From an uncultured Opitutus sp. (lineage in GTDB: Bacteria; Verrucomicrobiota; Verrucomicrobiia; Opitutales; Opitutaceae): a stretch of DNA of 64,000 bases. Below are positions 1-22,088 of the stretch, one piece after another. Below the pieces are notes generated by a model. It was not told the origin of the DNA. It saw nothing but the letters and a program-made list of their open reading frames with translations, and made no database searches. How positions within the stretch are numbered: the first letter of the stretch is position 1; every line of letters starts with the position of its first letter. The DNA lies in NCBI GenBank assembly GCA_964460715.1, contig CAYWRG010000018.1, positions 773-64,772 on the forward strand, written 5' to 3'. The position numbers and the translations under genes are program-made.

Positions 1-792
1 TTCGGCCGGGGCGGCAGCCTCGTCGGGCAGCGTGATCCGCATCATGAGGAACAGCTCCTTTTCACCGCGGCGCATGGCCAGCACACGGTGCGACGGGGCC
101 TTGGCCAGCGGCTCAGCCCAGTCGAAGTAGTCCTTGAATTTGGCGCCCTCGGCTTCCTTGCCGGTGAGGACCTTCGAGGAGATCACCGCGTTGGTGCGGT
201 AGAGGCCGCGGAGTTTTTCGCGGGCGTTGGCGTCGTCCGCGATGCGCTCGGCAAGGATGTCGCGGGCACCGGCGAGGACCTGCTCCGTATTTTCGATTTT
301 CGATTTTTTATTTTCGAATTCAACCTCACGGCCAATGTAGGGCTGGGCGTCGGCAATGGGGTCCGTGGTGGGGTCCTGGGCCCACAGCAGTTCGGCCAGC
401 GGCTCGAGGCCGAGTTCCTTGGCGATGGTGGCGCGGGTGCGCTTCTTGGGCCGATAGGGGAGGTAGATGTCCTCTAGCTTGGTCATCGTCGTGGCGGCGT
501 TGAGCGCGCCCTCGAGTTCCGGCGTGAGGAGGCCGCGTTCCTTGAGCGAGGCGACGATGGCGAGGCGGCGCTCATCAAGCTGCGTCATCTGCTCCATGCG
601 GTCGCGGATGGCCATGACGGCGACCTCATCCAGCTCACCGGTCACCTCCTTACGGTAACGGGCGATGAAGGGCACCGTGGCGCCCTCCTTGATGAGCTGT
701 GCGGTCGCGGCGACCTGGTGAACCTTGAGGGAAAGCTCCTGCGCGATGCGCAGCACGTGGTCGGGATTGGGCAGATCCGGGGTGGCGGTCAT
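1..792 (-). CDS. tex: Tex-like RNA-binding transcription accessory protein, N-terminal 264 codons (gene runs off the window start)
   Basis: Own reverse-strand translation from the ATG (complement of 790-792): MTATPDLPNPDHVLRIAQELSLKVHQVAATAQLIKEGATVPFIARYRKEVTGELDEVAVMAIRDRMEQ... The EGATVPFIARYRKE block is the conserved Tex/YhgF N-terminal signature. The frame stays open to position 1. It is absent from the ORF track because there is no stop codon inside the window. Confidence 0.8.
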   Translation of the reverse strand, partial: MTATPDLPNPDHVLRIAQELSLKVHQVAATAQLIKEGATVPFIARYRKEVTGELDEVAVMAIRDRMEQMTQLDERRLAIVASLKERGLLTPELEGALNAATTMTKLEDIYLPYRPKKRTRATIAKELGLEPLAELLWAQDPTTDPIADAQPYIGREVEFENKKSKIENTEQVLAGARDILAERIADDANAREKLRGLYRTNAVISSKVLTGKEAEGAKFKDYFDWAEPLAKAPSHRVLAMRRGEKELFLMMRITLPDEAAAPAE

Positions 793-892
793 GAAAAGGA
801 TGCGTGAGTGCAACTACTTGACCGTCATGGGCAAGGGCAAAACCCAAGGAAATTTGCTGCAGGATTCTCTCTTTTGTGTACTATCTATATCA

Positions 893-1387
893 ATGAACCG
901 TATATTCATGCTCTTCTTGTTCGCAGGGGCGCTGTTGCGTGCCGAGCCCGCGGCGTGGAATCCGATCGAACAGCAGGTGGCTGCGATCGCTCAAGGGCCG
1001 CAGGTGACCGTGGTCCACTTCTGGGCCTCCTGGTGCTCAAACTGCAAGGCGGAGCATGCGGATGGCGGCTGGCGGGAGTTCGCCGCGGCGAATCCGGACG
1101 TGAGGGTGATCTTCATCTCCGTCTGGGGCAGCGCCGAGGATGACGCCGCACTGCTCGAGGGCTACGGGCTGAGTGGGCTTTCCAATTTCACGGCGCTGCG
1201 TCACCCGGACCAGAAGCGCGCGCGGGCCGAGCGAATCGGGTCCTTCATGGATCTGCCGGTCTCGTGGGTGCCCACGACGTGGGTGCTCAAGGACGGCAAG
1301 CTGCGGTTCGCCTTCAATTACGGCGAGGTGCGCTTCCCGATGCTGCAGCAGCTGGTCGCGGATTCCCGCGACGTGTGGAAGCACTGA
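893..1387 (+). CDS. TlpA-like thioredoxin-fold thiol-disulfide oxidoreductase (secreted)
   Basis: Internal ATG at 893 of track ORF 725..1387 gives a signal-like N-terminus, MNRIFMLFLFAGALLRAEPAAW. CxxC motif in VVHFWASWCSNCKAEH, typical of the redoxin/TlpA family. Confidence 0.75.
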   Translation: MNRIFMLFLFAGALLRAEPAAWNPIEQQVAAIAQGPQVTVVHFWASWCSNCKAEHADGGWREFAAANPDVRVIFISVWGSAEDDAALLEGYGLSGLSNFTALRHPDQKRARAERIGSFMDLPVSWVPTTWVLKDGKLRFAFNYGEVRFPMLQQLVADSRDVWKH

Positions 1388-1507: not shown

Positions 1508-2623
1508 CTACTTTGCCGCAGTGCGCGGGGCGAGTTCGACGGCGTCGCCGGCGCGAAGCAGGGCGTTCGGGTTGACCACGATCTGGAGGTCGGGCGTCAG
1601 TCCGCTGGAGGTGACTTCGACGTTGGGGCCGAGATTTCGGCCCGACTTGACCTCGACAAAGGCGATCTTGCCGTCGCGCACGACCGCGAGTGAGGCCTGA
1701 CCGTTGCGGACAAGCAGCGTGTTGGTCGGGACCAGAAAGGTTCCGGCGGCGGGCGGGATCGAGAAGACGACCGTGCCCGTGAGGCCGGCGGGGACGAGGA
1801 GATCCTTGTTATCGATGACCAACTCGACGCGCATGGTGCCGGAGGCCGGATCGAAGATCCGGCTCGTACGGGCGATCTTGGCCGGGAAAGTCTGGCCGGG
1901 GAACTCGGCGAAACGGACGGAGGCGGATTGCTCGGGCTTCAGGCGGAGGGCGAGATCGGGGCCGGCGTTGAGGGTCACGCGCAGGGTGTCGAGGCGGACC
2001 AGACGGTAGAGCCAGCCCTCGGCGGTGGCGGAGTCGCCGCGCACGCGATCACCACGATCAAAATTGCGTCCGGCGACGACGGCGTCGAATGGGGCGCGCA
2101 CGGTCGCGAACTTCTGCTGCTCTTCCAACCGGGCCAGACTGGCTTCGGCGACGCGCACGGCGGCCTCGAGTTCCGCCGTGGTGGCGAGACGCTGGTCGTA
2201 GTCTTCCTGCGAAATGGCGCGCGAGGACAGCAGGCCGGCGGAGCGGTCGGAAAGCCGGCGGGCGCTGAGCGCGCGGGCCGTGGCCTGCTCGACCGTGGCG
2301 CGCGCGGCTTCGACCGAGCGGTCGATCTCCGGGGCGTCGATCACGGCGAGGATGTCGCCGGCCTTGACCTGATCGCCGATGTCGAAGCGGCGTTCCTTCA
2401 CCATGCCTGTCGCGCGGGTAAAAATGAGGACGGACTCATACGCTTCGGTGCGTCCGGGCAAATCCACGGATTGGTTGGCGCTTGCCGCGGTCGGCGTCAC
2501 GGTGCGCACGACGGGACGTGCCGGGGCGGGACCACCGGAGCTGGCGGGTTGAGCCGGGAGGAACGTTGGGCTGGCGAGCAGGGCGCCGAGCAGGGCGCCG
2601 CGAAGGAGGAGCGAGGACTTCAT
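1508..2623 (-). CDS. RND efflux periplasmic adaptor subunit (HlyD/MFP family)
   Basis: 371 aa with a signal peptide (MKSSLLLRGALLGALLASPTFLPAQ). Lipoyl-like and coiled-coil hairpin regions (GDILAVIDAPEIDRSVEAARATVEQATARA...) followed by beta-barrel/MP domains, typical of MFPs. It lies directly downstream of the RND pump gene. Confidence 0.85.
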   Translation of the reverse strand: MKSSLLLRGALLGALLASPTFLPAQPASSGGPAPARPVVRTVTPTAASANQSVDLPGRTEAYESVLIFTRATGMVKERRFDIGDQVKAGDILAVIDAPEIDRSVEAARATVEQATARALSARRLSDRSAGLLSSRAISQEDYDQRLATTAELEAAVRVAEASLARLEEQQKFATVRAPFDAVVAGRNFDRGDRVRGDSATAEGWLYRLVRLDTLRVTLNAGPDLALRLKPEQSASVRFAEFPGQTFPAKIARTSRIFDPASGTMRVELVIDNKDLLVPAGLTGTVVFSIPPAAGTFLVPTNTLLVRNGQASLAVVRDGKIAFVEVKSGRNLGPNVEVTSSGLTPDLQIVVNPNALLRAGDAVELAPRTAAK

Positions 2624-6569: not shown

Positions 6570-6697
6570 GATCGTTCTTCGTTCTCGTTATCTTTCTCGT
6601 TCTCCTGGATTGAGATCGGATCGACTGCATCCGGCAGGGCCAAGCTCTGGGGCGGAGGGGCTGAGAACGAGAACGAAGAATGAGGAACGAGAACGAT
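6570..6697. repeat. Inverted/tandem GAACGA-type repeats upstream of ssrA
   Basis: ttcttcgttctcgtt (around 6575-6589) is the reverse complement of aacgagaacgaagaa (around 6666-6680). Additional copies of ctcgttctc / gaacgagaac occur on both sides. Confidence 0.6.
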
Positions 6698-9398: not shown

Positions 9399-10601
9399 GT
9401 GACGCTACCCTTGATCGTTTACCGCAGTCTGCGCCAGCACGCGCTGTCCACCTTGGTCACCGCCACGAGCATCGCCTTGGCGTGCGGATTGTTGATGACG
9501 GTGTGGATGGTGAAGGACCAGTCCCAGCGCGCTTTCGCCGACTCGACCACGGGCTTTGATGCCGTGCTCGGTGCACGCGGTTCGAAGCTCCAGCTGGTGC
9601 TGAACTCGATTTTCCACCTCGAGGCCTCGCCGGGCAACCTGGCGCCGGCGGACTACGAGGCGATCCGTCGTCATCCGGCGGTGAAGACGGCGATCCCGAT
9701 CGCGGTGGGCGACAATTACCAAGGCTGGCGCATCGTCGGCACGGTGCCGCAGCTCTTCAGCGTCGAGTACAGCAAGGGAAAGAGCTACGCGGTCGCGCCC
9801 GGCGGCAAGCAGTTCGATCCGGCCCAGCGTGAGGCGGTTATCGGCAGCCTCGCGAGCGAGCGCCTGGGCCTGAAGGTGGGCGATACGTTCAGCCCCTATC
9901 ACGGCATCAATTTCGATCCCAACGCGCAGCACGAGGAGGTCTATACGGTCACCGGCGTGCTCAATCCGACCAACACGCCGGCGGATCGCGTGATCTGGAT
10001 TCCGCTGCAGGGCGTGCAGACGATGGGCGGCCACGATCCCAAGATGGCAGCTGATGTGAGCGCCGTGCTGCTCCAGTTCCGGGCGCCGACGGCCGGCATC
10101 ATGCTGGATGTGATGTACAACAAGCAGGGCAACCGATTGACGCTGGCCTATCCGATCGGCGCGGTGGTGGCGGACTTGTTCAACAAGATTGGCTGGATGG
10201 ACAAAGTCCTCGCGCTCGTCGCCTACCTTGTCGCGGTTGTCGCGGCCGGTTCGGTGCTCGCCAGCATTTACGCTTCCATGCACGCCCGGCGGCGTGACAT
10301 TGCGATTCTTCGCGCGCTGGGTGCGCGTCGCCGCACGGTGTTCGGCGCGATCGTGGCCGAAGCGGCGGCGATCGGTGGTCTCGGTGCGATCGTGGGCTAC
10401 GCGGTGTACGCCGGCCTGTTCCTGCTCGTGGCCGGTGTGATCCGCGCCCAGACCGGCGTCGTGCTGGAGCTTGGTTCCATGCATCCGGTGCTGTGGGCTG
10501 CGCCGCTCGGCATGGCCGTCCTCGGTGCGCTCGGCGGCGTGGTGCCCGCGCTCAAGGCGTACAAGACCCCGGTGGCTGAAAATCTCATTCCTGCGTCATG
10601 A
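9399..10601 (+). CDS. ABC transporter permease, FtsX/MacB-type with periplasmic domain
   Basis: 400 aa, GTG start. N-terminal TM, about 230-aa periplasmic domain, then the C-terminal 3-TM FtsX module (RRRDIAILRALGARRRTVFGAIVAEAA...). Confidence 0.85.
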   Translation: MTLPLIVYRSLRQHALSTLVTATSIALACGLLMTVWMVKDQSQRAFADSTTGFDAVLGARGSKLQLVLNSIFHLEASPGNLAPADYEAIRRHPAVKTAIPIAVGDNYQGWRIVGTVPQLFSVEYSKGKSYAVAPGGKQFDPAQREAVIGSLASERLGLKVGDTFSPYHGINFDPNAQHEEVYTVTGVLNPTNTPADRVIWIPLQGVQTMGGHDPKMAADVSAVLLQFRAPTAGIMLDVMYNKQGNRLTLAYPIGAVVADLFNKIGWMDKVLALVAYLVAVVAAGSVLASIYASMHARRRDIAILRALGARRRTVFGAIVAEAAAIGGLGAIVGYAVYAGLFLLVAGVIRAQTGVVLELGSMHPVLWAAPLGMAVLGALGGVVPALKAYKTPVAENLIPAS

Positions 10602-11059
10602 CCTCCCTCGCTTCCCTTCGTTCGCTTCGCACCGTTATCCTTGCTTCCGTCATCGCCCTCCTGGCCGCTGGCTGCGGTCAGGGCGGCGGTTCGTCCGGTG
10701 GCGGCCACGCGCACACAGCCCCGCATGGCGGCAAGCTGGTGGAGGTGGGGGAGCACGCGTACAATCTGGAGTTCGTGGTCGACCGCGAGGAAGGGAAACT
10801 CACCGCGTACGTGCTCGACGGTCATGCGGAAAATTTCATCCGCACCGACCTCTCGGGCATCGCCCTGACCGTGAACGGCCGTCCGCTGACGCTGGCGCCG
10901 GTGGCGAATCCCGCGACCGGTGAGACGGTGGGCAGCACGGCGCAGTTCGAAGCGACGGCCGACTGGCTGAAGGCGCCGGGCGCGCAACTCACCGTGAGCA
11001 TCCCGGCCCTGACGCTGCGTGGCAGCGCGTTCACCGCGATCGAAGCGACCTTGCCCTGA
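10598..11059 (+). CDS. Lipoprotein with His-rich HGG motif, unknown function
   Basis: ATGA overlap with the permease stop. Lipobox LLAAGC, Gly/Ser linker, then GHAHTAPHGGKLVEVGEHAYNLEFVVD and DGHAENF. Confidence 0.7.
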   Translation: MTSLASLRSLRTVILASVIALLAAGCGQGGGSSGGGHAHTAPHGGKLVEVGEHAYNLEFVVDREEGKLTAYVLDGHAENFIRTDLSGIALTVNGRPLTLAPVANPATGETVGSTAQFEATADWLKAPGAQLTVSIPALTLRGSAFTAIEATLP

Positions 11060-11084
11060 GTCCAGAGAAGACCGACAGATTTTT

Positions 11085-11168
11085 CACCACGAAATACACG
11101 GAACACACGAAAACCGATCCGGATATCTGGGCTCAGACCCTTTCGTGTGTTCCGTGTATTTCGTGGTA
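11085..11168. repeat. Long hairpin element (27 bp stem, 28 nt loop)
   Basis: Arm 11086-11112 accacgaaatacacggaacacacgaaa is the exact reverse complement of 11141-11167. It lies between convergent stops at 11059 (+) and 11215 (-). Confidence 0.9.
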
Positions 11169-11214
11169 ATACCGGATCGAATCCGGGTGGTGTGCGGTCG
11201 ATACTGAGATCGTC

Positions 11215-11667
11215 TCAGCGCGAGATGTCGCGCTGGGTCAGCACCCGGAATCCGTGGTGATTGAGCGTCTGCGCGGCCACGTCGGTGTCCTCGGCGTTGA
11301 TGGCCAGCGCGGAGCGACCCTCGGGGCGTTTGATGAAGCTGTAGATGTAGTGGATGTTGATCTCGGCTTCGAGCAGGGCGGCGAGCACCTGCTTGAGATC
11401 GCCCTCATCATTGATCTCCACCGCGAGCACGTCGCACTCGGTGTAGGGGAAATCATTGTTGATCATGAGCTCGCGTGCCTTGTCCGGGTCGTCGACGACG
11501 ACCCGCACGATCGCGCTGTCCGTCGTGTCGAGAACGGTGAGCGCCATGACGTGCACGTTGTTCTCCTTGAACAGTGCGGTCAGGTCGAACAGGCGACCAA
11601 CGCGATTCTCCGCGAAGACGGAGAACTGTTTGACGGGATCGGCGGCGGTAGCGGTGCGGGCGGCCAT
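11215..11667 (-). CDS. ACT domain-containing protein (tandem ACT)
   Basis: Start taken at the second ATG (MAARTATAADPVKQFSVFAENRVGRLFDLTALF...). Two ACT-like beta-alpha-beta-beta-alpha-beta units. Confidence 0.7.
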   Translation of the reverse strand: MAARTATAADPVKQFSVFAENRVGRLFDLTALFKENNVHVMALTVLDTTDSAIVRVVVDDPDKARELMINNDFPYTECDVLAVEINDEGDLKQVLAALLEAEINIHYIYSFIKRPEGRSALAINAEDTDVAAQTLNHHGFRVLTQRDISR

Positions 11668-11794
11668 GTTCGGATCTAACAACCATGGCAAACGGGCCGG
11701 AGGCGGTCAATGGCCGGGCGGTTGTCCTGCTCCGATGAAAATCCACGGATGACCACCCGCGAATCATGCGAATCGGCACGAATTCAGAAGAACG

Positions 11795-11875
11795 ACCACG
11801 GAACACACCGAACACACGGAAGCTCTGAGTTCGGATTTCTTCACCCTGTTCCGTGTGTTCGGTGTGTTCCGTGGT
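11795..11875. repeat. Long hairpin element (perfect 27 bp stem, 27 nt loop), related to 11085..11168
   Basis: accacggaacacaccgaacacacggaa (11795-11821) is the exact reverse complement of 11849-11875. Weaker flanking complementarity extends it (cccgcgaatcatgcgaat at about 11757 versus attcgcggtgattcgcggg at about 11895-11913). Confidence 0.9.
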
Positions 11876-11926
11876 GATTCAATTCGGTTTTATTCGCGGT
11901 GATTCGCGGGCAGAATCCTCAGTGCC

Positions 11927-13057
11927 TCAGCTGGGCAGCGTAAACGCCGGCAGCTTCATGACCTCACCGCCGCGCAGGGCGGACTCGTGGGCGAGGATGC
12001 CGGTGCAGGTCCAGTTGGCCGACTCCATCGCGTTCGGGAACGGGTCGCGGTTCTCGATCAGCGCGGAGATGAACTCGTGGGCGAGGTGGGGATGCGAGCC
12101 ACCGTGGCCGCCGCCCTGGGTGAAGGAGAGGTGCTCGTTGCCCTCGGTGTCGTAGACGCCCTTGGTCGTGAACCGGCGGATGGGCTCCGGCAGGAGATGC
12201 GCGAAGTCCGGCACCGTGACCTTCTGGGGGATCTCGGGCTCTGGCTTCTTCGCGGTGTGGATGACCGGATGCTCGCCCTCGACGAGCGGCCACTCGAAGG
12301 TCTTGAGGCTGCCGTAGACGTCGAAGCTCTCGCGGTACTGGCGGGCGACATCGAACAGGCTGCGATAAATGCGGGCCGTGAGATCGCTGTCCTTGAACTT
12401 GATGTGGGTGGACTCGACCGCGAAGGGCGAGTTGTACTTCGGGATCATTTCCTCGCGGATCCGGCCGGAGCCGAAGCAGGAGACCGTCTCGGCGAGGTTG
12501 CGCGTGAGGCCGAGGCAAGGGCCGACGCAGTGCGTGGCGTAGTGCATCGGCGGCAGGCCGGGCCAGTAGCCGGGCCAGCCGTCCATGTCCTGCTGGTGAC
12601 TCGCCTGGAGAAACTGGATCTTGCCGAGCTCACCCTTGCGGTAGAGGTGGCGGACGAAGAGGAACTCGCGGGCGTACACGACCGTTTCCATCATCATGTA
12701 CTTGAGGCCGGTCTCGCGCGTGAGCTTCACGATCTGTTCGCAGTCGGCGACGCTTGTGGCCATCGGCACGGTGCAGGCGACGTGCTTGCCCTTGCGCAGG
12801 GCCTTGATCGACTGCGCGGCGTGGTCAGGGATCGGCGTGTTGATGTGAACGGCGTCGATCGACGGATCCTCCAGGAGTTCGTCGTAACTCTGGTAGCGGC
12901 CCTTGATCCCAAAATGGTCAGCCACGGCGTCGAGCTTGTCCTTCGAGCGCTGGCAGACCGCGGCGAGGTGGGCCTGCGGATGGGCCTGGTAGATGGGAAT
13001 GAACTCGGCGCCGAAGCCGAGGCCGATGATGGCGACGTTGATCTTGCGGTCTTTCAT
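11927..13057 (-). CDS. Gfo/Idh/MocA family oxidoreductase
   Basis: 376 aa. N-terminal Rossmann motif KINVAIIGLGFGAEF. Typical family layout. Confidence 0.85.
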   Translation of the reverse strand: MKDRKINVAIIGLGFGAEFIPIYQAHPQAHLAAVCQRSKDKLDAVADHFGIKGRYQSYDELLEDPSIDAVHINTPIPDHAAQSIKALRKGKHVACTVPMATSVADCEQIVKLTRETGLKYMMMETVVYAREFLFVRHLYRKGELGKIQFLQASHQQDMDGWPGYWPGLPPMHYATHCVGPCLGLTRNLAETVSCFGSGRIREEMIPKYNSPFAVESTHIKFKDSDLTARIYRSLFDVARQYRESFDVYGSLKTFEWPLVEGEHPVIHTAKKPEPEIPQKVTVPDFAHLLPEPIRRFTTKGVYDTEGNEHLSFTQGGGHGGSHPHLAHEFISALIENRDPFPNAMESANWTCTGILAHESALRGGEVMKLPAFTLPS

Positions 13058-14929: not shown

Positions 14930-17900
14930 ATGCGCCTCATCCGGTTCGTGCTTCTTGCGTTCTCTCTCATCGACGGCGCCGCATTTGCGGCGGAGCCGGT
15001 TGTTCATCCGAAGGCTGACGCGCGTCGGCTTGAGGTGCTCTTCCTCGGTTCGCCGACCGCGAGTCACGCGGCGCACGATCCGATCACGCGTTACCGCATG
15101 CTCAAGAAAGCCACGGGCACATCGGGCATCAACCTGACGTATAGCGAGAGCCTGGAGGAAGCGCTGACGCCGGCGTTCCTCGCGCAATTCGACGCTGTGC
15201 TGCTCTACGCGAACTGGCCGCGGATCGAGCCGGCGCAGGAGCGGGCGCTGATCAGCTACATTGAGAGTGGTCGCGGGTTCATTCCGGTGCACTCGGCGTC
15301 GGCATGCTTTGGCAATTCCGATGCGTTCATCGCGCTGGTTGGCGCACGCTTCCAGCGTCACGGCGGTGAGGTCTTCACGCCGGCCACGGTGCTGCCGGAT
15401 CACCCGACGATGCAGGGACTGGCCCCGCTCGAGGCCTGGGACGAGACGTATCTGCACGATCGCCAGGGCGGTGATCGCACGGTCCTGCAGGTGCGCAAGC
15501 ACCCGGCAGGCGAGGAGCCGTGGACTTGGGTGCGCACGCAGGGTTCGGGCCGTGTATTTTATACCGCGTCGGGTCATGACGAGCGCGTCTGGGATCTGCC
15601 GGCGTTTCATCAGCTCCTGATCAAGGGCATCACGTGGGCGGCAGGTCCTGAGGCCTCTGGTCGACTGACGCGGCTGCAGTTGCCCGTGCTCAAGGAGCAG
15701 GACGTGATCATGCCCGGCTACCTCCGCAAGCAGCCGATCACCAAGGCGCAGATGCCGCTCTCGCCGGTGGAAAGCGCGAAGATGATCCAGGTGCCGCTCG
15801 GGTTTGAGGTTTCCCTCTTTGCGGCCGAGCCCGAGATCGTGAACCCGATCTACATCGGCTGGGATCACCGCGGCCGCGCCTACGTGATCGAGACGATCGA
15901 CTACCCGAACAATCTCCAGGCCGGCAATGTGGGCCATGACCGGATCAAGATTACCGAGGATACGAATGGTGACGGCCGGGCGGACAAGTTCACGGTGTTT
16001 GCGGAAGGGCTTTCGATCCCGACTTCGCTGGTCTTCGTCAACGGCGGCGTGCTCACGACCAACGGTACACAGCTGCTTTTCCTCAAGGACACGGACGGTG
16101 ACGACAAGGCGGACGTGCGGCAGGTGCTGGTCGAGGGCTTCAAGATGCACGACACGCACGCGAGCGTCTCCAATCTCCGCTACGGCTACGACAACTGGAT
16201 CTACGCGACGATCGGCTACTCCGGATTCGCGGGCGAGGTCGGCGGCGCGAAGCTCGAGTTTGCGCAGGGCCTCTTCCGGTTCACGCCCGACGGCAAGAAG
16301 ATGGAGTACCTGCAGCCGACGACCAACAACACCTGGGGCCTCGGCTTCATGGAGGACTTTGCGATCCTCGGATCGACGGCGAACGGCAATCCCTCGTGGG
16401 TCTACACGCTGCCCCAGGAGCGTTACCGCGCGTTCGGCATCAACCAGCCGCGCACGCCGCGGGCGGACGACAATCCGTTCTATTATCCCAGCTCGATGGA
16501 CATCCGTCAGGTCGACGTCCACGGCAAGTACACCGCGGGTGCCGGGCATGCGTTCTACACGGCCCGCCGCTTCCCGGCCGATTACCAGAACAAGGTCGCC
16601 TTCGTCACCGAGCCGACGGGCAAGCTCGTTGGCTCCTTTGATGTGGCGCCGGCGGGCACGATCTACACGGCGCGGCAGCGGCCCAACAACATCTTCAACA
16701 GTGCCGATGCGTGGAGTTCGCCGGTCACGGCCGACGTCGGTCCTGATGGCGCGCTCTGGATTGCCGACTGGTACAATCTGATCATCCAGCACAACCCGAC
16801 GCCAACCGCCGCGTCGTCCGGCGTTGATGCGCAGAACGGGCGCGGCAACGCCTACCAGACGGCGCTGCGCGACACCGAGCATGGCCGCATCTGGCGAGTT
16901 TATCCCAAGGGCAGTGCAAATGACGCGATCCCCGCGCTCGATCCGGCGCGCCCGGAAACCCTGGTCGCGGGGCTCTCGCATACGAATCAACTCTGGCGCC
17001 TTCATGCGCAGCGGCTGTTGGTCGAAGGCGGTCACCGGAGCGCGGCGGCCGACCTGCGGCGGACGGTCCAGGCGGGTGGCGTGGGCGCGGTGCATGCCCT
17101 CCAGGCCCTCGCGGGGCTGGGAACCGTGGACGCCGAACTCCTGACCGTGGCGTGGCGCTCGGACGACGCCGGCCTGCGCCGGGCCGGACGTGAACTTGCG
17201 GCGCGGGACAACCCGGCGTTCCTCCGCCAACAAGTCATGGCGGGCACAGGACCGTTGACCGCGGCGAATCCGCGCGAACTCATTGAATTGCTCGGCGCCG
17301 TGTCGCGGCTCGAGGCATCGCCTGAGCTTGGCCTGCGAATTTTTGCCACCGGCGTCGCACAGGAAACGGCGCTCGTTAAAGACACGGTGCTGGCCGATGC
17401 CTGGCAGCTCGCGGCGCGGGCCCATGCGGCCGGCGTGATTGATGCGGCGCTCGCGGCCAATCTCCCCTTCAAGCAGGCGGACCAATCCCTCGCCGGCCAA
17501 GTTCTCCCGGTGGTGGCGTGGTACGCGGGCACGGCGCCGGATCGCCGCGCGGCGGTGCTGGCGAGCGCACGCGGGCAGTCCAATGCGTTCGCTGCGTACG
17601 TGGCGGGCGGCCTTGCAGTCCCCGCGACCGGCCCGGTGGCGGCCAAGTTTGCGCCTGATCCGGTCATTCATCAGCGCGGTGCCCAGATATACGGCAACAC
17701 CTGCGTGGCTTGCCACGGCCTGGATGCGAAGGGCGTCGAAGGCGCGTTCCCGCCGCTCGCGGGTTCGGAGTGGATCACCGGCGATCCGTCGGCCGCGATT
17801 CGCATCGTCCTGCACGGGCTGACGGGGCCGATCACCGTGGCGGGCCAATCCTATGACAGCATCATGCCTCCGGTGGTCGGACTTTCGGACGGCGACATCG

Positions 17901-18052
17901 CGAGCGTGCTGACCTATATTCGCCAGAGCTATGGCAACGACGCCGCGCCGGTGACGGATGCCGAAGTCCGGGCGGTCCGCGGGGCGACCCGTCAGCGCCG
18001 CGATCTGTGGACGGCGGAAGAGCTCAAGACGCCGGTCAAGCTCACGCCCTGA
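14930..18052 (+). CDS. Secreted multidomain protein: ThuA-like domain + PVC-type membrane-bound-dehydrogenase/beta-propeller region + HEAT-like repeats + C-terminal c-type cytochrome
   Basis: 1040 aa with a signal peptide. ThuA-like N-terminus (EVLFLGS...FDAVLLYANW...GFIPVHSASACF). CxxCH heme motif in QIYGNTCVACHGLDAKG, followed by IMPP. This architecture is common in Planctomycetes/Verrucomicrobia. Confidence 0.75.
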   Translation: MRLIRFVLLAFSLIDGAAFAAEPVVHPKADARRLEVLFLGSPTASHAAHDPITRYRMLKKATGTSGINLTYSESLEEALTPAFLAQFDAVLLYANWPRIEPAQERALISYIESGRGFIPVHSASACFGNSDAFIALVGARFQRHGGEVFTPATVLPDHPTMQGLAPLEAWDETYLHDRQGGDRTVLQVRKHPAGEEPWTWVRTQGSGRVFYTASGHDERVWDLPAFHQLLIKGITWAAGPEASGRLTRLQLPVLKEQDVIMPGYLRKQPITKAQMPLSPVESAKMIQVPLGFEVSLFAAEPEIVNPIYIGWDHRGRAYVIETIDYPNNLQAGNVGHDRIKITEDTNGDGRADKFTVFAEGLSIPTSLVFVNGGVLTTNGTQLLFLKDTDGDDKADVRQVLVEGFKMHDTHASVSNLRYGYDNWIYATIGYSGFAGEVGGAKLEFAQGLFRFTPDGKKMEYLQPTTNNTWGLGFMEDFAILGSTANGNPSWVYTLPQERYRAFGINQPRTPRADDNPFYYPSSMDIRQVDVHGKYTAGAGHAFYTARRFPADYQNKVAFVTEPTGKLVGSFDVAPAGTIYTARQRPNNIFNSADAWSSPVTADVGPDGALWIADWYNLIIQHNPTPTAASSGVDAQNGRGNAYQTALRDTEHGRIWRVYPKGSANDAIPALDPARPETLVAGLSHTNQLWRLHAQRLLVEGGHRSAAADLRRTVQAGGVGAVHALQALAGLGTVDAELLTVAWRSDDAGLRRAGRELAARDNPAFLRQQVMAGTGPLTAANPRELIELLGAVSRLEASPELGLRIFATGVAQETALVKDTVLADAWQLAARAHAAGVIDAALAANLPFKQADQSLAGQVLPVVAWYAGTAPDRRAAVLASARGQSNAFAAYVAGGLAVPATGPVAAKFAPDPVIHQRGAQIYGNTCVACHGLDAKGVEGAFPPLAGSEWITGDPSAAIRIVLHGLTGPITVAGQSYDSIMPPVVGLSDGDIASVLTYIRQSYGNDAAPVTDAEVRAVRGATRQRRDLWTAEELKTPVKLTP

Positions 18053-18063
18053 TTGCTATGGCG

Positions 18064-18144
18064 GATGTAGCCGGGCTCGCTGAGCCCGGTCTGTATGCGC
18101 CGACCGATCTTTCCCTGACCGGGCTCAGCGAGCCCAGCTACATC
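18064..18144. repeat. Long hairpin element (27/28 bp stem, 25 nt loop); each arm is itself palindromic
   Basis: gatgtagccgggctcgctgagcccggtc (18064-18091) versus the reverse complement of 18117-18144 has one mismatch. Each arm contains CCGGGCTC...GAGCCCGG. Confidence 0.9.
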
Positions 18145-18154
18145 AGTCAACAAG

Positions 18155-19289: not shown

Positions 19290-21116
19290 ATGAAGACGAG
19301 AAATCCGTCCGTACCCCTTAGCGAAAATCAGCACCTGCTCCGGTGGGTCGAAAAAATGGCCGAGTTGTGCAAACCGGCCGCAATCCACTGGGTGGACGGA
19401 TCCCAGGAAGAGGCCGATGAATTGAGCGCCCAGCTGGTGGCCAGCGGCACGTTCATCAAGCTGAACGAGAAGCTCTGGCCCGGCTGCTACTACGCCAAGT
19501 CCGACGCCGGGGACGTCGCCCGCGTCGAGGATCGCACGTTCATTTGCTCCCTGTCCAAGGACACGGCGGGACCGACCAACAACTGGGTCGATCCGTTCCA
19601 GATGCGCCGTAAGCTGAAGGAGGTCTTTGCCGGCTGCATGGAAGGCCGCACCATGTATGTGTTGCCCTACAGCATGGGGCCAGTGGGTTCGCAGATGTCG
19701 CAGATTGGCGTCGAGCTGACCGATTCGCCCTATGTGGTGGTCAACATGCGGATCATGGCCCGCGTCGGCCTGCCGGTCTACAAGGAGATCGACAAGGCGG
19801 AGAAGCGCGTCGTCCCGTGCATCCACTCGGTCGGACACCCGCTCAAGCCCGGCCAGAAGGATGTGCCTTGGCCCTGCAATCCCGACAAGTACATCGTGCA
19901 CTTCCCGGAGACCCGTGAGATCTGGAGCTACGGTTCCGGCTACGGTGGCAATGCGCTGCTCGGCAAGAAGTGCTTTGCGCTTCGCATCGCGTCCAACATG
20001 GCCCGCGACGAAGGTTGGATGGCGGAGCACATGCTGATTCTCGGCGTCGAGAACCCGAAGGGCGAGAAGACCTACGTCGCAGCGGCGTTCCCGAGCGCCT
20101 GCGGCAAGACGAACTTCGCCATGCTGATCCCGCCCGAGCACTTCAAGAAGCAGGGCTGGAAGGTGTGGACGGTCGGCGACGACATCGCGTGGATCAAGCC
20201 TGACGCCAACGGTCGCCTCCGTGCGATCAATCCCGAGGCCGGCTTCTTCGGCGTCGCCCCCGGCACGTCGAACAAGACGAACCCGAACGCGATGGCCTCG
20301 CTCTCGAAGAACACGATCTTCACCAACGTGGCGCTGACCCCCGAGGGTGGCGTCTGGTGGGAGGGCATGACGGACGAGCCGCCGGCTGAGTGCATCGACT
20401 GGCAGGGCAAGAAGTGGACCCCGGCGATCGGGAAGGAAACGGGCGCCAAGGCGGCCCATCCGAACGCGCGCTTCACGGCTCCGGCCTCCCAGTGCCCGAC
20501 CATCGACCCCGAGTGGGAGAATCCCGAGGGTGTTCCGATCAGCGCCTTCATCTTCGGCGGTCGCCGCGCGACCACCATGCCGCTGGTTTACCAGGCCTTC
20601 AACTGGAGCGCGGGTGTCTACACCGGCGCCACGATGGGCTCCGAGATGACCGCGGCTGCGGCGGGCACGATCGGCAAGGTCCGACGCGACCCGTTCGCCA
20701 TGCTGCCGTTCTGCGGCTACAACATGGGCGACTACTTCCGTCACTGGATCAAGATGCAGCGCAATCTCACCGAGACGCCGCGCATCTTCCACGTCAACTG
20801 GTTCCGCAAGGACAAGGACGGCAAGTTCATGTGGCCCGGCTTCAGCGAAAACATGCGCGTCCTCAAGTGGATCACGGACCGCGCCCGCGGTCGCGCGCTG
20901 GGTCGCGAGACGCCGATCGGCTGGCAGCCCCGCTACGAGGACCTTGATTGGGAAGGCATGAACTTCCCGAAGGAGCGCTTTGACGAGCTGCAGGCCTTTG
21001 ACCGTGAGGCGTGGCGAGCCGAAGTGCTTGGTCAGGAGGAACTCTTCCTCGATCTGCACGACCATCTGCCGAAGGAACTGATCTACGAGCGCCAGCTCCT
21101 GATCTGCCGGATGTAA
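19290..21116 (+). CDS. pckG: Phosphoenolpyruvate carboxykinase (GTP)
   Basis: 608 aa. Motifs FPSACGKTN (kinase-1a P-loop), GDDIAWI, WEGM, NWFRKD. Confidence 0.95.
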
Positions 21117-21155: not shown

Positions 21156-21251
21156 GGGGGGGGGGGGCGCGGGGGGGCGCCCGGGCGGCCCCCCGGGCCC
21201 CCCCGGCCCCGGCCCCCCGCCCCGCCCCCGGGCCCCCCCCCCCCCCCCCCC
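21156..21251. repeat. 96-nt tract made only of G and C, with G12 and C19 homopolymers
   Basis: Read directly from the sequence: G12 CGC G7 CGCCC GGG C GG C6 GGG C7 GG C4 GG C6 G C4 G C5 GGG C19. Confidence 0.95.
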
Positions 21252-21257
21252 ACGCCG

Positions 21258-22088
21258 TTGTCCCGCGAAAAACTCCTTGAGACCGCCCGGTCGCTTCCAG
21301 CGGACCTGGAGGTCCTCTCGACGCTGGGCGAGATGCTGCAGGACGTGAACGCGGAGCTTGATGCGATCGCTTCCCTGCTGCGCCGCGACCTCGCGCTGGC
21401 GGCCCGCATTGTCCGCATCAGCAACAGTCCGTTGTTTGGCGGTCGCGTGTCGTCGGTCGAGGAGGCGGTGAATCGGGTCGGCTTTGGGGAGATTCTTCGT
21501 CTGGTCGGTACGGCCACGACGGGCCGCTTTGCCGATCGCGCGCTGGAACACTACGGCATCACTGCGCTGCAACTGCGCGACAACATGCTCTACACGGCCT
21601 TCGCGTGCGAGGAACTCGCGCGTCAGGCGGGCGGCGATACGCGCATGGCCTACACTGCGGGCCTGTTGCGGCCGATCGGATTTATGGGCCTCGCCCGCGC
21701 GGCGCGCGGTCGGATCCCGCCCCGGGAGACCTTTGAGCCCAAGCGTTGGGGCAACTATCGCATTTGGGAGGGCAGTTTCCTCGGGATTGGTCATGCGGAG
21801 GTCGCTGGCCTCGTCCTGGACGAGTGGCATTTCCCCAAACCCATGGGCGCGGCGCTGAGGGCGCATTATCTTACCCACCAAGCGGACGCCTCCCAGCCAC
21901 TTGCGTTGCTGCTCAACTTGGCCGGCACCCTGACGGGTGCGGCGGGGCACGCGTTCGAGGGCGAGACGGATCACTGGCTGTTGACACCGGAAAAGCTCGC
22001 GGCGGCCGGCCTGACTGAGGAGCAGCTTTCGCACGCGGCCGAGGCGGCCGGGCAGGCCTTTGACCGGGCGGTTGCGCTGCTGCGCTAG
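21258..22088 (+). CDS. HDOD domain-containing signalling protein
   Basis: 276 aa. HDOD-type N-terminus (LPADLEVLSTLGEMLQDVNAELDAIASLLRRDLALAARIVRISNSPLFGG). The only in-frame start is a TTG 6 nt after the C19 tract, so the start is uncertain. Confidence 0.75.
   Translation: MSREKLLETARSLPADLEVLSTLGEMLQDVNAELDAIASLLRRDLALAARIVRISNSPLFGGRVSSVEEAVNRVGFGEILRLVGTATTGRFADRALEHYGITALQLRDNMLYTAFACEELARQAGGDTRMAYTAGLLRPIGFMGLARAARGRIPPRETFEPKRWGNYRIWEGSFLGIGHAEVAGLVLDEWHFPKPMGAALRAHYLTHQADASQPLALLLNLAGTLTGAAGHAFEGETDHWLLTPEKLAAAGLTEEQLSHAAEAAGQAFDRAVALLR

Follow-up and report, generated by a model that had tools for sequence, protein, structure and literature searches.

This study examined two long hairpins, elements A and B, on either side of an ACT-domain gene in a 64,000-nucleotide window (the whole stretch of DNA analyzed) from a genome of the Opitutaceae, Verrucomicrobiota. 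The balance of evidence tilts slightly toward A and B being gene-less ("empty") members of a hairpin-armed cassette family, the full-length loop of which holds a gene for a GxxExxY protein of approximately 125 aa. The hairpins of this family are best read as non-autonomous derivatives of GxxExxY cassettes and as relatives of the 23S rRNA intervening sequences (IVSs). The best reading of their mode of action is that they work like the REPIN/RAYT or NTS/Ssn systems and belong to neither.

Element A comprises a left arm, ACCACGAAATACACGGAACACACGAAA (11086-11112), a variable 28-nt loop (11113-11140), and a right arm (11141-11167) that is the exact reverse complement of the left one; the 27-nt arms are thus 100% complementary. 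The left arm, the commonest ("master") arm sequence of the family in this genome, is made up of AC and three 9-nt units, CACGAAATA, CACGGAACA, and CACGAAA. Element B (locus C18 "OIi") is a composite in which an inner hairpin is enclosed by a second pair of arms. Its outer left arm, ACCCGCGAATCATGCGAATCGGCACGAAT (11755-11783), is a diverged copy of a second arm family, GCCCGCGAATCACGCGAATCGGCGCGAAT, which consists of three units of approximately 10 nt (CGCGAATCNN). A left linker (11784-11794) joins it to the inner left arm, ACCACGGAACACACCGAACACACGGAA (11795-11821), followed by a 27-nt loop (11822-11848), the inner right arm (11849-11875, the exact reverse complement of 11795-11821), a right linker (11876-11881), and the outer right arm, ATTCGGTTTTATTCGCGGTGATTCGCGGGC (11882-11911). 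The inner stem is perfect over 27 bp and extends to 32 nt at 94%. An earlier note had described A and B as perfect 27-bp hairpins with loops of 27-28 nt, and both the coordinates and the complementarity were confirmed. The imperfect outer inverted repeat that it had reported around B, at roughly 155 bp in total, was also recovered: 11755-11783 and 11882-11911 are imperfect partners that pair in the fold, and the 157 bp of B fold as a single long hairpin. The predicted RNA folds were -51.3 kcal/mol for element A (z = -8.2) and -94.7 kcal/mol for the B composite (z = -10.6), and in both cases 0 shuffles were equally stable. The arms of A and B are 85% identical, and the kinship that had been proposed for them therefore stands; the proposed division into two GAA(n)ACAC units does not, since three tandem 9-nt units (CACGRAAYA) after AC fit each arm better. 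Within the window, CACGGAACACAC had 6 matches at ≤1 mismatch, compared with 0.31 expected. In a comparison by eye with composite copies, a weak candidate for a linker remnant (CCGGATCGAAT) was seen 3' of element A (11168-11192); linkers of this type join inner to outer arms in composite copies, and this stretch has no recognizable outer arm.

Both elements lie just past stop codons, as had been stated earlier. Element A is 26 nt from the stop codon of the upstream ORF (10598-11059, + strand, 153 aa, no Pfam match) and 47 nt from that of the ACT-domain gene (ACT_8, E = 3.5e-18; 11215-11691, - strand), the start region of which is downstream of B. The stop codon of a GFO_IDH_MocA oxidoreductase gene (11927-13057, - strand) is 15 nt from the end of the outer arm of B. 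A terminator scan of 10900-12100 on both strands revealed no terminator-like site, and a promoter scan run alongside it revealed nothing. Intrinsic terminators, which combine a short GC-rich stem with a T-run, were rejected as an identity for A and B on the basis of the 27-bp stems and the absence of a T-run behind them (the next letters being AATACC and GATTCA, respectively). In Rfam, no match reached the gathering score, and the sub-threshold matches were chance matches to miRNA hairpin models only. We also considered A and B as the two ends of a composite element with the ACT-domain gene as cargo. This candidate was rejected because the gene occupies the same location in congeners lacking A, B, or both, which indicates that it is a host gene; other arm pairs in the "+ ... 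-" arrangement 0.7-5 kb apart proved to be merely adjacent hairpins.

We then searched the entire 4.4-Mb genome for the 27-mer arm. At ≤6 mismatches, 119 copies were found, compared with 0 in a shuffled genome, and the 27-mer of element A has 35 perfect copies genome-wide. Among the 119 inner arms, 44 inverted pairs were recognized, the modal loop length being 27-28 nt. The outer-arm family yielded 102 matches and 29 pairs, and its arms surround inner hairpins at no fewer than 25 loci; taken together, the inner (CACGRAA-based) and outer (CGCGAAT-based) families occupy 103 loci and are frequently nested in each other's loop. The earlier note had called for such a copy search and had allowed that only two copies might exist, which is not what the genome contains. 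It had also likened the hairpins to dispersed REP/MITE-like elements; a dispersed family of near-identical hairpins at approximately 100 loci is indeed present, and the defining features of REPs and classical MITEs are absent from it. Among the 100 classified loci, 88 are intergenic. Convergent, tandem, and divergent spacers hold 34, 49, and 5 loci, respectively, against a background of 362, 999, and 359 (chi-square p = 2e-5), and stop codons are a median of 39 nt away. The hairpin family is abundant in two of the seven congeners and in many other genomes. In addition, this genome contains no fewer than 10 further unit families, each with one gene-bearing cassette and 10-60 gene-less hairpins, and hairpins of this kind number at least 250 in at least 10 unit families.

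To characterize the gene-bearing cassettes, all 6 full PF13366 genes of the genome and 7 PF05635 matches (6 of them above Pfam's cut-off) were examined. The results revealed that nearly all of these genes lie within inverted arms of approximately three tandem 7-10-nt units and that the unit differs from cassette to cassette. Elements A and B share this architecture, with 3 x 9 nt units in their arms and 3 x ~10 nt units in the outer arms of B, and they share the placement of the cassette family in a spacer that separates a stop codon from the following gene. Outer arms surround one PF13366 gene in the genome (C15:38585-39035) and another in the congener G004 (C3). At the site orthologous to C15 in the sister species G003 (C19 / L073; flanks ~97% identical), a 61%-identical GxxExxY gene is carried within inner arms. 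Exact inner arms surround PF13366 genes of 124-126 aa in Burkholderiales, Verrucomicrobiota, and other MAGs: the inner-armed loci comprise L021, L063, L080, L118, and L120 in addition to G003 C19 / L073, and inner arms directly flank the GxxExxY gene in genomes G144, G167, G322, G068, and G097. The identical 27-nt inner arm was found across many phyla. In the genome under study, no GxxExxY gene is inner-armed, the arms there being of the outer (C15) and CGCGGAA (C52) types only. The arm unit tracks the protein: CACGGAA, CGCGGAA, and CGCGAAT arms occur with one clade (50-74% identity), and CACGGAT arms accompany a different GxxExxY clade. The connection to GxxExxY nuclease cassettes did not appear in the earlier note, and our literature search found no prior description of the nuclease-plus-repeat pairing or of a hairpin-armed GxxExxY cassette family.

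The GxxExxY protein (125 aa) belongs to PF13366 (PDDEXK_3) of the PD-(D/E)XK nuclease family, and the PD...E-x-K signature is intact in all members of the clade. PF13366, a large family of small proteins, was listed as of unknown function in a 2012 survey (PMC3424549); no later work on its function was found in the literature, and a sequence search of the PDB returned no relative of the family with a solved structure. A fold search with an AlphaFold model (pLDDT 81) gave weak matches, all of them to PD-(D/E)XK nucleases (Cas4 SSO0001, Hjc); these weak matches do not discriminate resolvase-like from Cas4-like action.

We further compared the distribution of the arms with that of the protein clade. 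Of the 14 genomes with at least 10 arms, 11 contain a close GxxExxY homologue (E ≤ 1e-45), compared with 36 of the 287 others (Fisher 1e-7, with phylogeny ignored). Within the genus, all three arm-rich species (G000, the genome under study, G003, and G004) carry a homologue at ≥62% identity, whereas in all four arm-free species (G001, G002, G005, and G007) the best identity is only 34-41% and the clade is missing. The genus therefore offers a clean natural contrast of three arm-rich and four arm-free species, with cassettes swapped at one site. This co-occurrence fits equally well with a GxxExxY gene that merely lodges in pre-existing hairpins. RAYT-like genes displayed no such co-occurrence with the arms, as Y1_Tnp occurs in every one of the 7 congeners, the 4 arm-free ones among them.

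Conservation resides in the arms of the hairpins and hardly extends to their loops. In the 11 copies with both arms perfect (54/54 bases), the loops are 59% alike, compared with 52 +/- 6% for shuffled loops; they are essentially unrelated. Compared with element A, its G003 orthologue has 2 loop substitutions, and all 54 arm bases are unchanged. Across 19 orthologous pairs between G000 and G003, two species approximately 95% identical, the substitution rates were 7.5% in arms, 15.8% in loops, and 12% in linkers. Arms thus change approximately 2-fold more slowly than loops between close species, a difference that alone fails to explain 11 perfect copies with unrelated loops. Changes affecting both arms numbered 48, compared with 18 +/- 4 expected; at one orthologous site, both arms changed together from GAACTCC to GAGCTAC. 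Arms also shed entire 9-nt units between close species. Mismatches in the arms revealed no sense-strand G:U bias that would signal selection at the RNA level (18 vs 26, p = 0.29). The three units differ from one another in the same order in 35 copies, which indicates that the 27-mer is copied whole, and telomere-like unit addition was set aside as the origin of the tandem-unit arms.

The earlier note had also proposed a comparison of orthologous intergenic regions, and this comparison did reveal presence and absence of hairpins. At the orthologous sites L154/C25, L149/C10, and L168/C45, hairpins are present or absent within the loops of other hairpins, and the nesting occurs in both orders. 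At the B site, the entire spacer differs between G000 and G003, and at the A site, other species have a different hairpin in the same spacer. Neither a target-site duplication nor a clean junction was found at the polymorphic orthologous sites, and because the junctions are not clean, no boundary rule can be stated. The possibility that gene-less loops are leftovers of a deleted GxxExxY gene was rejected; the loops are unlike the ends of the gene in L073, so the hairpins seem to propagate in their own right.

We propose that the cognate GxxExxY nuclease makes, maintains, or moves the hairpins in trans. With the DNA folded into a hairpin or cruciform, the predicted nuclease would recognize its repeated units; new copies would preferentially enter hairpin loops and gene ends, and arm complementarity would be kept by templating of one arm on the other at the DNA level. 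The duplexes of A (27 bp) and B (~60 bp), if co-transcribed with the gene upstream, would be RNase III substrates. In Coxiella, the 28-bp stem of the 23S IVS is cut by RNase III (PMC4990558); because IVS stems of equal length are substrates of this enzyme, the hairpins probably also mark transcript ends. More tentatively, GxxExxY (PDDEXK_3) proteins might be the trans-acting enzymes of an undescribed, phylum-spanning nuclease-plus-hairpin class, although we regard this wider reading as doubtful. Each protein clade would then recognize its own "code", written in each arm as three tandem 7-10-nt units; by cutting the extruded hairpin or cruciform, it would drive the insertion of hairpins and small genes into the loops of other hairpins and into stop-codon-adjacent spacers. 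Within this class, the classical 23S rRNA IVSs would form one special case, and this genome, with its ≥250 hairpins, would be a heavily colonized host.

An alternative that we consider unlikely, but less so than the others, is that the hairpins are primary and self-sufficient, the host's own replication and repair spreading or regenerating them (for example, through template switching at palindromes, slippage of the 9-nt units, or gene conversion) with the nuclease uninvolved, and that the GxxExxY and four-helix-bundle genes are both passengers preferentially lodging in the loops. Loops demonstrably receive hairpins of three unrelated families, so genes could enter likewise; gene-less copies exceed gene-bearing ones 10-60 fold, and this genome has approximately 60 inner-type hairpins and zero inner-armed genes. 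The slippage of units and the changes in both arms are DNA-level events that require no dedicated enzyme, and the absent G:U bias agrees with this origin. However, the 27-nt arm is identical across phyla and, wherever it brackets a gene, that gene is invariably of the same protein clade, which is difficult to explain without joint transfer and sequence-specific recognition; both the similarity of arm units, which follows that of the proteins, and the split of the genus (3/3 vs 0/4) argue against passengers. Host-selected RNA elements in 3' UTRs or between cistrons, acting as stabilizers of transcript ends, RNase III sites, or factor-dependent terminators, are improbable as the primary explanation. 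They would account for the strong placement after stop codons, the depletion in divergent promoter spacers, and the very stable predicted stems; the different hairpin at the A site in other species suggests that some hairpin is wanted there, and REPs, which are similarly placed, have been proposed to act as RNA (PMC3733652). Against this role, the stems lack a T-run, the scan revealed no terminator-like site, and the G:U bias is missing. A structural role needs no identical arms in approximately 100 unrelated transcripts and across phyla, and the nesting and orthologous presence/absence point to insertion dynamics. An RNA role can nevertheless coexist with nuclease-dependent cassettes as a secondary effect.

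Two classes of mobile repeat were also weighed, and both are very improbable. In REPINs, inverted REP pairs are mobilized by RAYT, an IS200/IS605-like Y1 transposase, and a REP unit is an imperfect palindrome of 20-40 nt, one end of which bears an unpaired tag, GTAG or CGTC (PMC3733652). The hairpin family resembles them in its dispersed inverted pairs, conserved arms, less conserved and variable spacer, and compensatory changes (PMC3116915), as well as in its post-gene placement and in the flanking of a single-copy gene by the same repeats (PMC3116915, PMC3733652), and the genome has two Y1_Tnp genes. Its arms, however, are tandem 9-10-nt units and not palindromes; ACCACGAAATACACGGAACACACGAAA has neither the GTAG/CGTC tag nor an internal palindrome, and the partner is a PD-(D/E)XK protein instead of a Y1 transposase. 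Neither Y1_Tnp gene (C39, C34) has such arms nearby, Y1_Tnp occurs in 7/7 congeners irrespective of arms, and a separate GTAG-tagged family (GTAGCCGGGSTC..., ~450 copies), which has the REP unit feature, is the natural RAYT partner. The REPIN/RAYT reading has thus largely been refuted. The hairpins could also be viewed as classical MITEs, namely deletion derivatives of a DDE-transposase IS with which they share terminal inverted repeats of 27-29 bp, and they are indeed short, non-coding, intergenically dispersed, and patchy among species, with inverted-repeat ends of typical length. The only unit >300 bp with such ends in the genome is, however, the 451-bp GxxExxY cassette, and no parent IS was found there. 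The polymorphic sites lack a target-site duplication, perfect-ended copies have unrelated, non-conserved interiors, hairpins nest in hairpin loops, and each arm strings short units together in tandem where a MITE would have a single transposase-binding end.

Cassettes associated with a GxxExxY nuclease remain our preferred reading, and besides REPINs and MITEs, two known systems provide close parallels. The 23S rRNA IVSs of Coxiella, Leptospira, and Salmonella likewise have a long terminal inverted repeat that forms a stem of approximately 28 bp around a small ORF (S23p / PF05635) or a short loop, and in this genome, tandem-unit arms of the same kind surround both PF05635 and GxxExxY genes. 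In contrast, A and B lie between protein-coding genes, outside rRNA, and are thus not IVSs; the cargo of the hairpin family is a GxxExxY nuclease gene and not S23p, and the family has approximately 100 copies per genome. Cutting by RNase III is established for IVSs and predicted for A and B. The NTS/SRM repeats flank the gene of the Ssn (GIY-YIG) nuclease, have tens to hundreds of further copies, and co-occur with it across phyla (PMC11893778). The hairpin family is similar in that a multicopy hairpin repeat lies on either side of a small nuclease gene and co-occurs with it across phyla. It differs in the nuclease superfamily (PD-(D/E)XK vs GIY-YIG) and in its 27-bp tandem-unit stem, compared with a short palindrome of approximately 30 nt; moreover, cleavage has been demonstrated for Ssn and is proposed for GxxExxY.

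If this link holds, a function open to testing can be assigned to PF13366, namely partnership with a specific repeat, as in RAYT/REP and Ssn/NTS, and the finding would bear on how rRNA intervening sequences arose. Nucleases with sequence specificity for short tandem units in folded DNA may also be of interest as molecular tools. Approximately 7% of the scanned intergenic spacers in the genome contain a hairpin with periodic arms, and annotation may misread such hairpins as terminators, sRNAs, or spurious short ORFs.

An earlier note on this DNA had described two 27-bp perfect hairpins flanking an ACT-domain gene, and our analysis confirmed both. The arms of element A (11086-11112 and 11141-11167) are 100% complementary over 27 nt and enclose a 28-nt loop, and the inner arms of element B (11795-11821 and 11849-11875) pair perfectly across 27 nt (94% across 32 nt) and enclose a 27-nt loop. 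An outer inverted repeat, which the note had proposed to extend B to about 155 bp, was also found; it is imperfect, pairs 11755-11783 with 11882-11911, and gives a 157-bp element. The neighboring genes were as described, with an ACT-domain protein gene at 11215-11691 (-) and a GFO_IDH_MocA oxidoreductase gene at 11927-13057 (-); the so-called lipoprotein gene next to A had no Pfam match. The inner arm comprises AC and three 9-nt units (CACGAAATA-CACGGAACA-CACGAAA in A), and the outer arm of B comprises three units of approximately 10 nt (CGCGAATCNN). RNA folding yielded -51.3 kcal/mol (z = -8.2) for A and one continuous hairpin of -94.7 kcal/mol (z = -10.6) for the B composite. No T-run of the terminator type followed either stem, and no Rfam family matched the hairpins.

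The earlier note would have regarded the two as local oddities had they been the only copies genome-wide. The genome (4.40 Mb, 129 contigs, G+C 64.6%) instead contained 119 matches to the inner 27-mer at 6 or fewer mismatches, 35 of them perfect, compared with 0 in the shuffled genome; these arms made up 44 inverted pairs, in which loops of 27-28 nt were the most common. The outer arm GCCCGCGAATCACGCGAATCGGCGCGAAT had 102 matches and formed 29 pairs, and merging the two families yielded 103 loci. An inner hairpin lay inside the loop of an outer hairpin, as in B, at 25 loci or more, whereas six outer pairs (77-151 bp) were empty or almost so; the reverse nesting occurred at one locus on contig C41, where an outer hairpin occupies a 154-nt inner loop. 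Among the 100 loci classified (three at contig ends were left out), 88 were intergenic, at a median of 39 nt from a stop codon. Their distribution over convergent, tandem, and divergent spacers (34, 49, and 5, against a background of 362, 999, and 359; p = 2e-5) revealed that convergent spacers are overused and divergent ones underused.

The note's view of A and B as REP/MITE-like dispersed elements thus held with regard to dispersal but not with regard to the label. REP identity was rejected because the family has no GTAG/CGTC tag, palindromic unit, or partner RAYT gene, and MITE identity because no target-site duplication was seen at orthologous sites and no parent insertion sequence in this genome. 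Unlike the 23S intervening sequence (IVS), A and B lie outside rRNA.

Several arm-bearing loci of other genomes have a small ORF directly adjoining an arm. In these loci, 13 of 89 arm pairs were 250-530 nt apart, and at least seven of the 13 enclosed a protein of 124-126 amino acids. All three enclosed proteins tested matched PF13366 (PDDEXK_3, "GxxExxY"; E <= 2e-38), a family listed as having no known function (PMC3424549). We inspected the flanks of all six full PF13366 genes in the window's genome and of seven matches (six over Pfam's cut-off) to PF05635, the 23S-IVS four-helix-bundle protein. Nearly all of these genes had inverted arms of approximately 30 nt on both sides, consisting of about three tandem 7-10-nt units that varied by cassette. 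Unit families matching gene-bearing cassettes of this genome also occur at many gene-less loci; the loci numbered 66 for CACGRAA (inner), 62 for CGCGAAT (outer), 54 for CACGGAT, 32 for CGCAGAG, 17 for CAATGRC, and 13 for TCAACG, compared with 0-4 in reversed-genome controls. A and B are most likely gene-less members of a hairpin-armed GxxExxY cassette family; the architecture, copy number, placement, and arms common to gene-bearing cassettes are observed features.

One outer-armed PF13366 gene (C15:38585-39035) lies between the stop of an ABC ATPase gene and the start of a permease gene; the TAA stop of the upstream gene falls within the arm. At the orthologous site of the congener G003 (C19:64419-64873, identical to locus L073), a different cassette is present, with inner CACGGAA arms instead of CGCGAAT; the flanks are approximately 97% identical, whereas the GxxExxY proteins are 61% identical. 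The inner-armed proteins formed one clade (mutual identity 54-74%), which was 49-67% identical to the C15 protein and the CGCGGAA-armed C52 protein but 27-40% identical to the other GxxExxY proteins of the window's genome, whose arm units are unrelated. The PD...E-x-K motif was intact in all the proteins compared. No solved structure related to PF13366 by sequence was found, and an AlphaFold model (pLDDT 81) yielded weak PD-(D/E)XK matches alone (Cas4 SSO0001, E 2e-3; Hjc, 3e-2).

The inner arm was counted 107 times in the window's genome, 97 times in G003, and 47 times in G004; G006 had a vestigial four, and the other four congeners had none (reversed-pattern control, 0). The gene followed the same division: the three arm-rich genomes each had a homologue with 62% identity or more, whereas the best homologue in the remaining five congeners reached at most 41%. 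In a phylum sample, the arm occurred in 63 of 301 genomes, with the highest count in the window's genome, and a close homologue of the inner-armed protein (E <= 1e-45) was present in 11 of the 14 genomes that had 10 or more arms compared with 36 of the 287 others (Fisher 1e-7, a value that ignores phylogeny). As a control, Y1_Tnp (RAYT-type) genes were present in all seven congeners, and no inner or outer arms flanked those of the window's genome. With one genome per species, the exact arm pattern occurred on at least 114 contigs; the matches listed included Verrucomicrobiota, Planctomycetota, Kiritimatiellia, Lentisphaerae, Nitrosomonas isolates, Burkholderiales, Acidobacteriota, Chloroflexota, Armatimonadota, Desulfobacterota, and others, in which the arms likewise formed inverted pairs flanking variable loops.

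In 11 copies with all 54 arm bases perfect, the loops were only 59% alike (shuffled, 52 +/- 6%), which excludes plain copying of whole elements followed by drift. Between the window's genome and G003 (approximately 95% identical), 38 G003 hairpin sites had both flanks in the former, and 19 were clearly shared. At these 19 sites, the substitution rate was 7.5% in arms, 15.8% in loops, 12% in the 45 nt outside each arm, and 6.4% in the next 75 nt per side. Two positions had altered in both arms together at one orthologous site, and changes in both arms numbered 48 against an expected 18 +/- 4, an excess that is partly subfamily structure; single arms also lost entire 9-nt units. Hairpins are gained and lost within the loops of other hairpins. 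G003 carries an inner hairpin inside the loop of a hairpin with CACAGAT arms (L154/C25) and an outer hairpin in another loop (L149/C10) where the loops of the window's genome are short. At L168/C45 the same outer loop is occupied by an inner hairpin in G003 but by a GTAG-type REP hairpin in the window's genome. Neither target-site duplications nor clean junctions were seen at orthologous sites. The comparison with related strains that the earlier note had called for revealed such presence/absence at the locus of A and B: A is shared with G003 (identical arms, two loop changes), its spacer carries different hairpins in G004 and G006, and B occurs in the window's genome alone. The G004 (C147) and G006 (C56) orthologues of 11700-11925, where B lies, carry AATCCGNA-type units (such as CGATCCGCAATCCGAAGTCCCGAATC) arrayed on one side, with no evident inverted partner.

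Equally observed are the co-occurrence of arms and gene, the changes made jointly in both arms, and the polymorphic nesting within loops. In the main rival explanation, which is plausible, host processes spread the hairpins and the genes ride in them as passengers. In the cassette reading, the GxxExxY nuclease would act in trans on the arms, with hairpin loops and stop-proximal spacers as its probable targets. Arm complementarity may be maintained at the DNA level: arm mismatches exhibited no sense-strand G:U bias (18 vs 26, p = 0.29), a comparison of little power that leans this way. Transcribed stems could be RNase III substrates by analogy with the Coxiella 23S IVS, whose stem is 28 bp long (PMC4990558). 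The family resembles REPIN/RAYT systems in its conserved arms, less conserved spacer, and compensatory changes (for REPINs, PMC3116915), and NTS/Ssn systems in having a small nuclease gene framed by its own hairpin repeat, which in NTS/Ssn reaches hundreds of copies (PMC11893778). It is best filed under this nuclease-plus-repeat theme; our literature searches yielded no prior description of such GxxExxY cassettes or of their gene-less hairpins.

Inverted repeats of at least 20 nt were present in 292 of the 2022 intergenic spacers scanned in this genome, and in 139 of these the arms had an internal period of 6-11 nt. Arms of the CTCGTT/TCGTTCTCGTTCTC type (period 6) occurred at approximately 10 loci, including 6572-6683 of the window (C18:7344-7455), and the GAAACCTGA and ATTTTCGAA families at approximately 8-10 loci each; no gene-bearing cassette with any of these arms was found in this genome. 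A tandem-unit hairpin at 1402-1484 (arms GGAAATCCGAAGGACGAAGCTCGAATGACGAA, 32 nt, 78% complementary) lies between the convergent genes 725-1387 (+) and 1508-2623 (-), and similar CCGAATGACGAA-type arms were found at several further loci. The REPIN-like hairpin at 18059-18149 belongs to another family: it comprises two inverted GTAG-tagged palindromic REPs (GTAGCCGGGCTCGCTGAGCCCGG; arms 33 nt at 91%, spacer 25 nt) just past the stop of gene 14930-18052, and a 23-mer of this REP has approximately 450 copies genome-wide (4 or fewer mismatches). No copies of this family were found within 3 kb of the Y1_Tnp genes C39:9595-10572 and C34:42797-43558. Four copies of GAGCCGGAAGGGGTCATGCCG precede the former, RAYT-like gene (C39:9200-9600) and an inverted copy follows it (10572-10620); this may be that gene's own repeat family. 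Finally, genes 19290-21116 and 21258-22088 are separated by a G-rich and then C-rich homopolymer-like run (GGGGGGGGGGGGCGCGGGGGGG...CCCCCCCCCCCCCCCCC) at 21156-21249, which could be a genuine G/C tract or have arisen as an assembly artefact; G-runs resembling it were seen at C40:~22650 and C81:16478.
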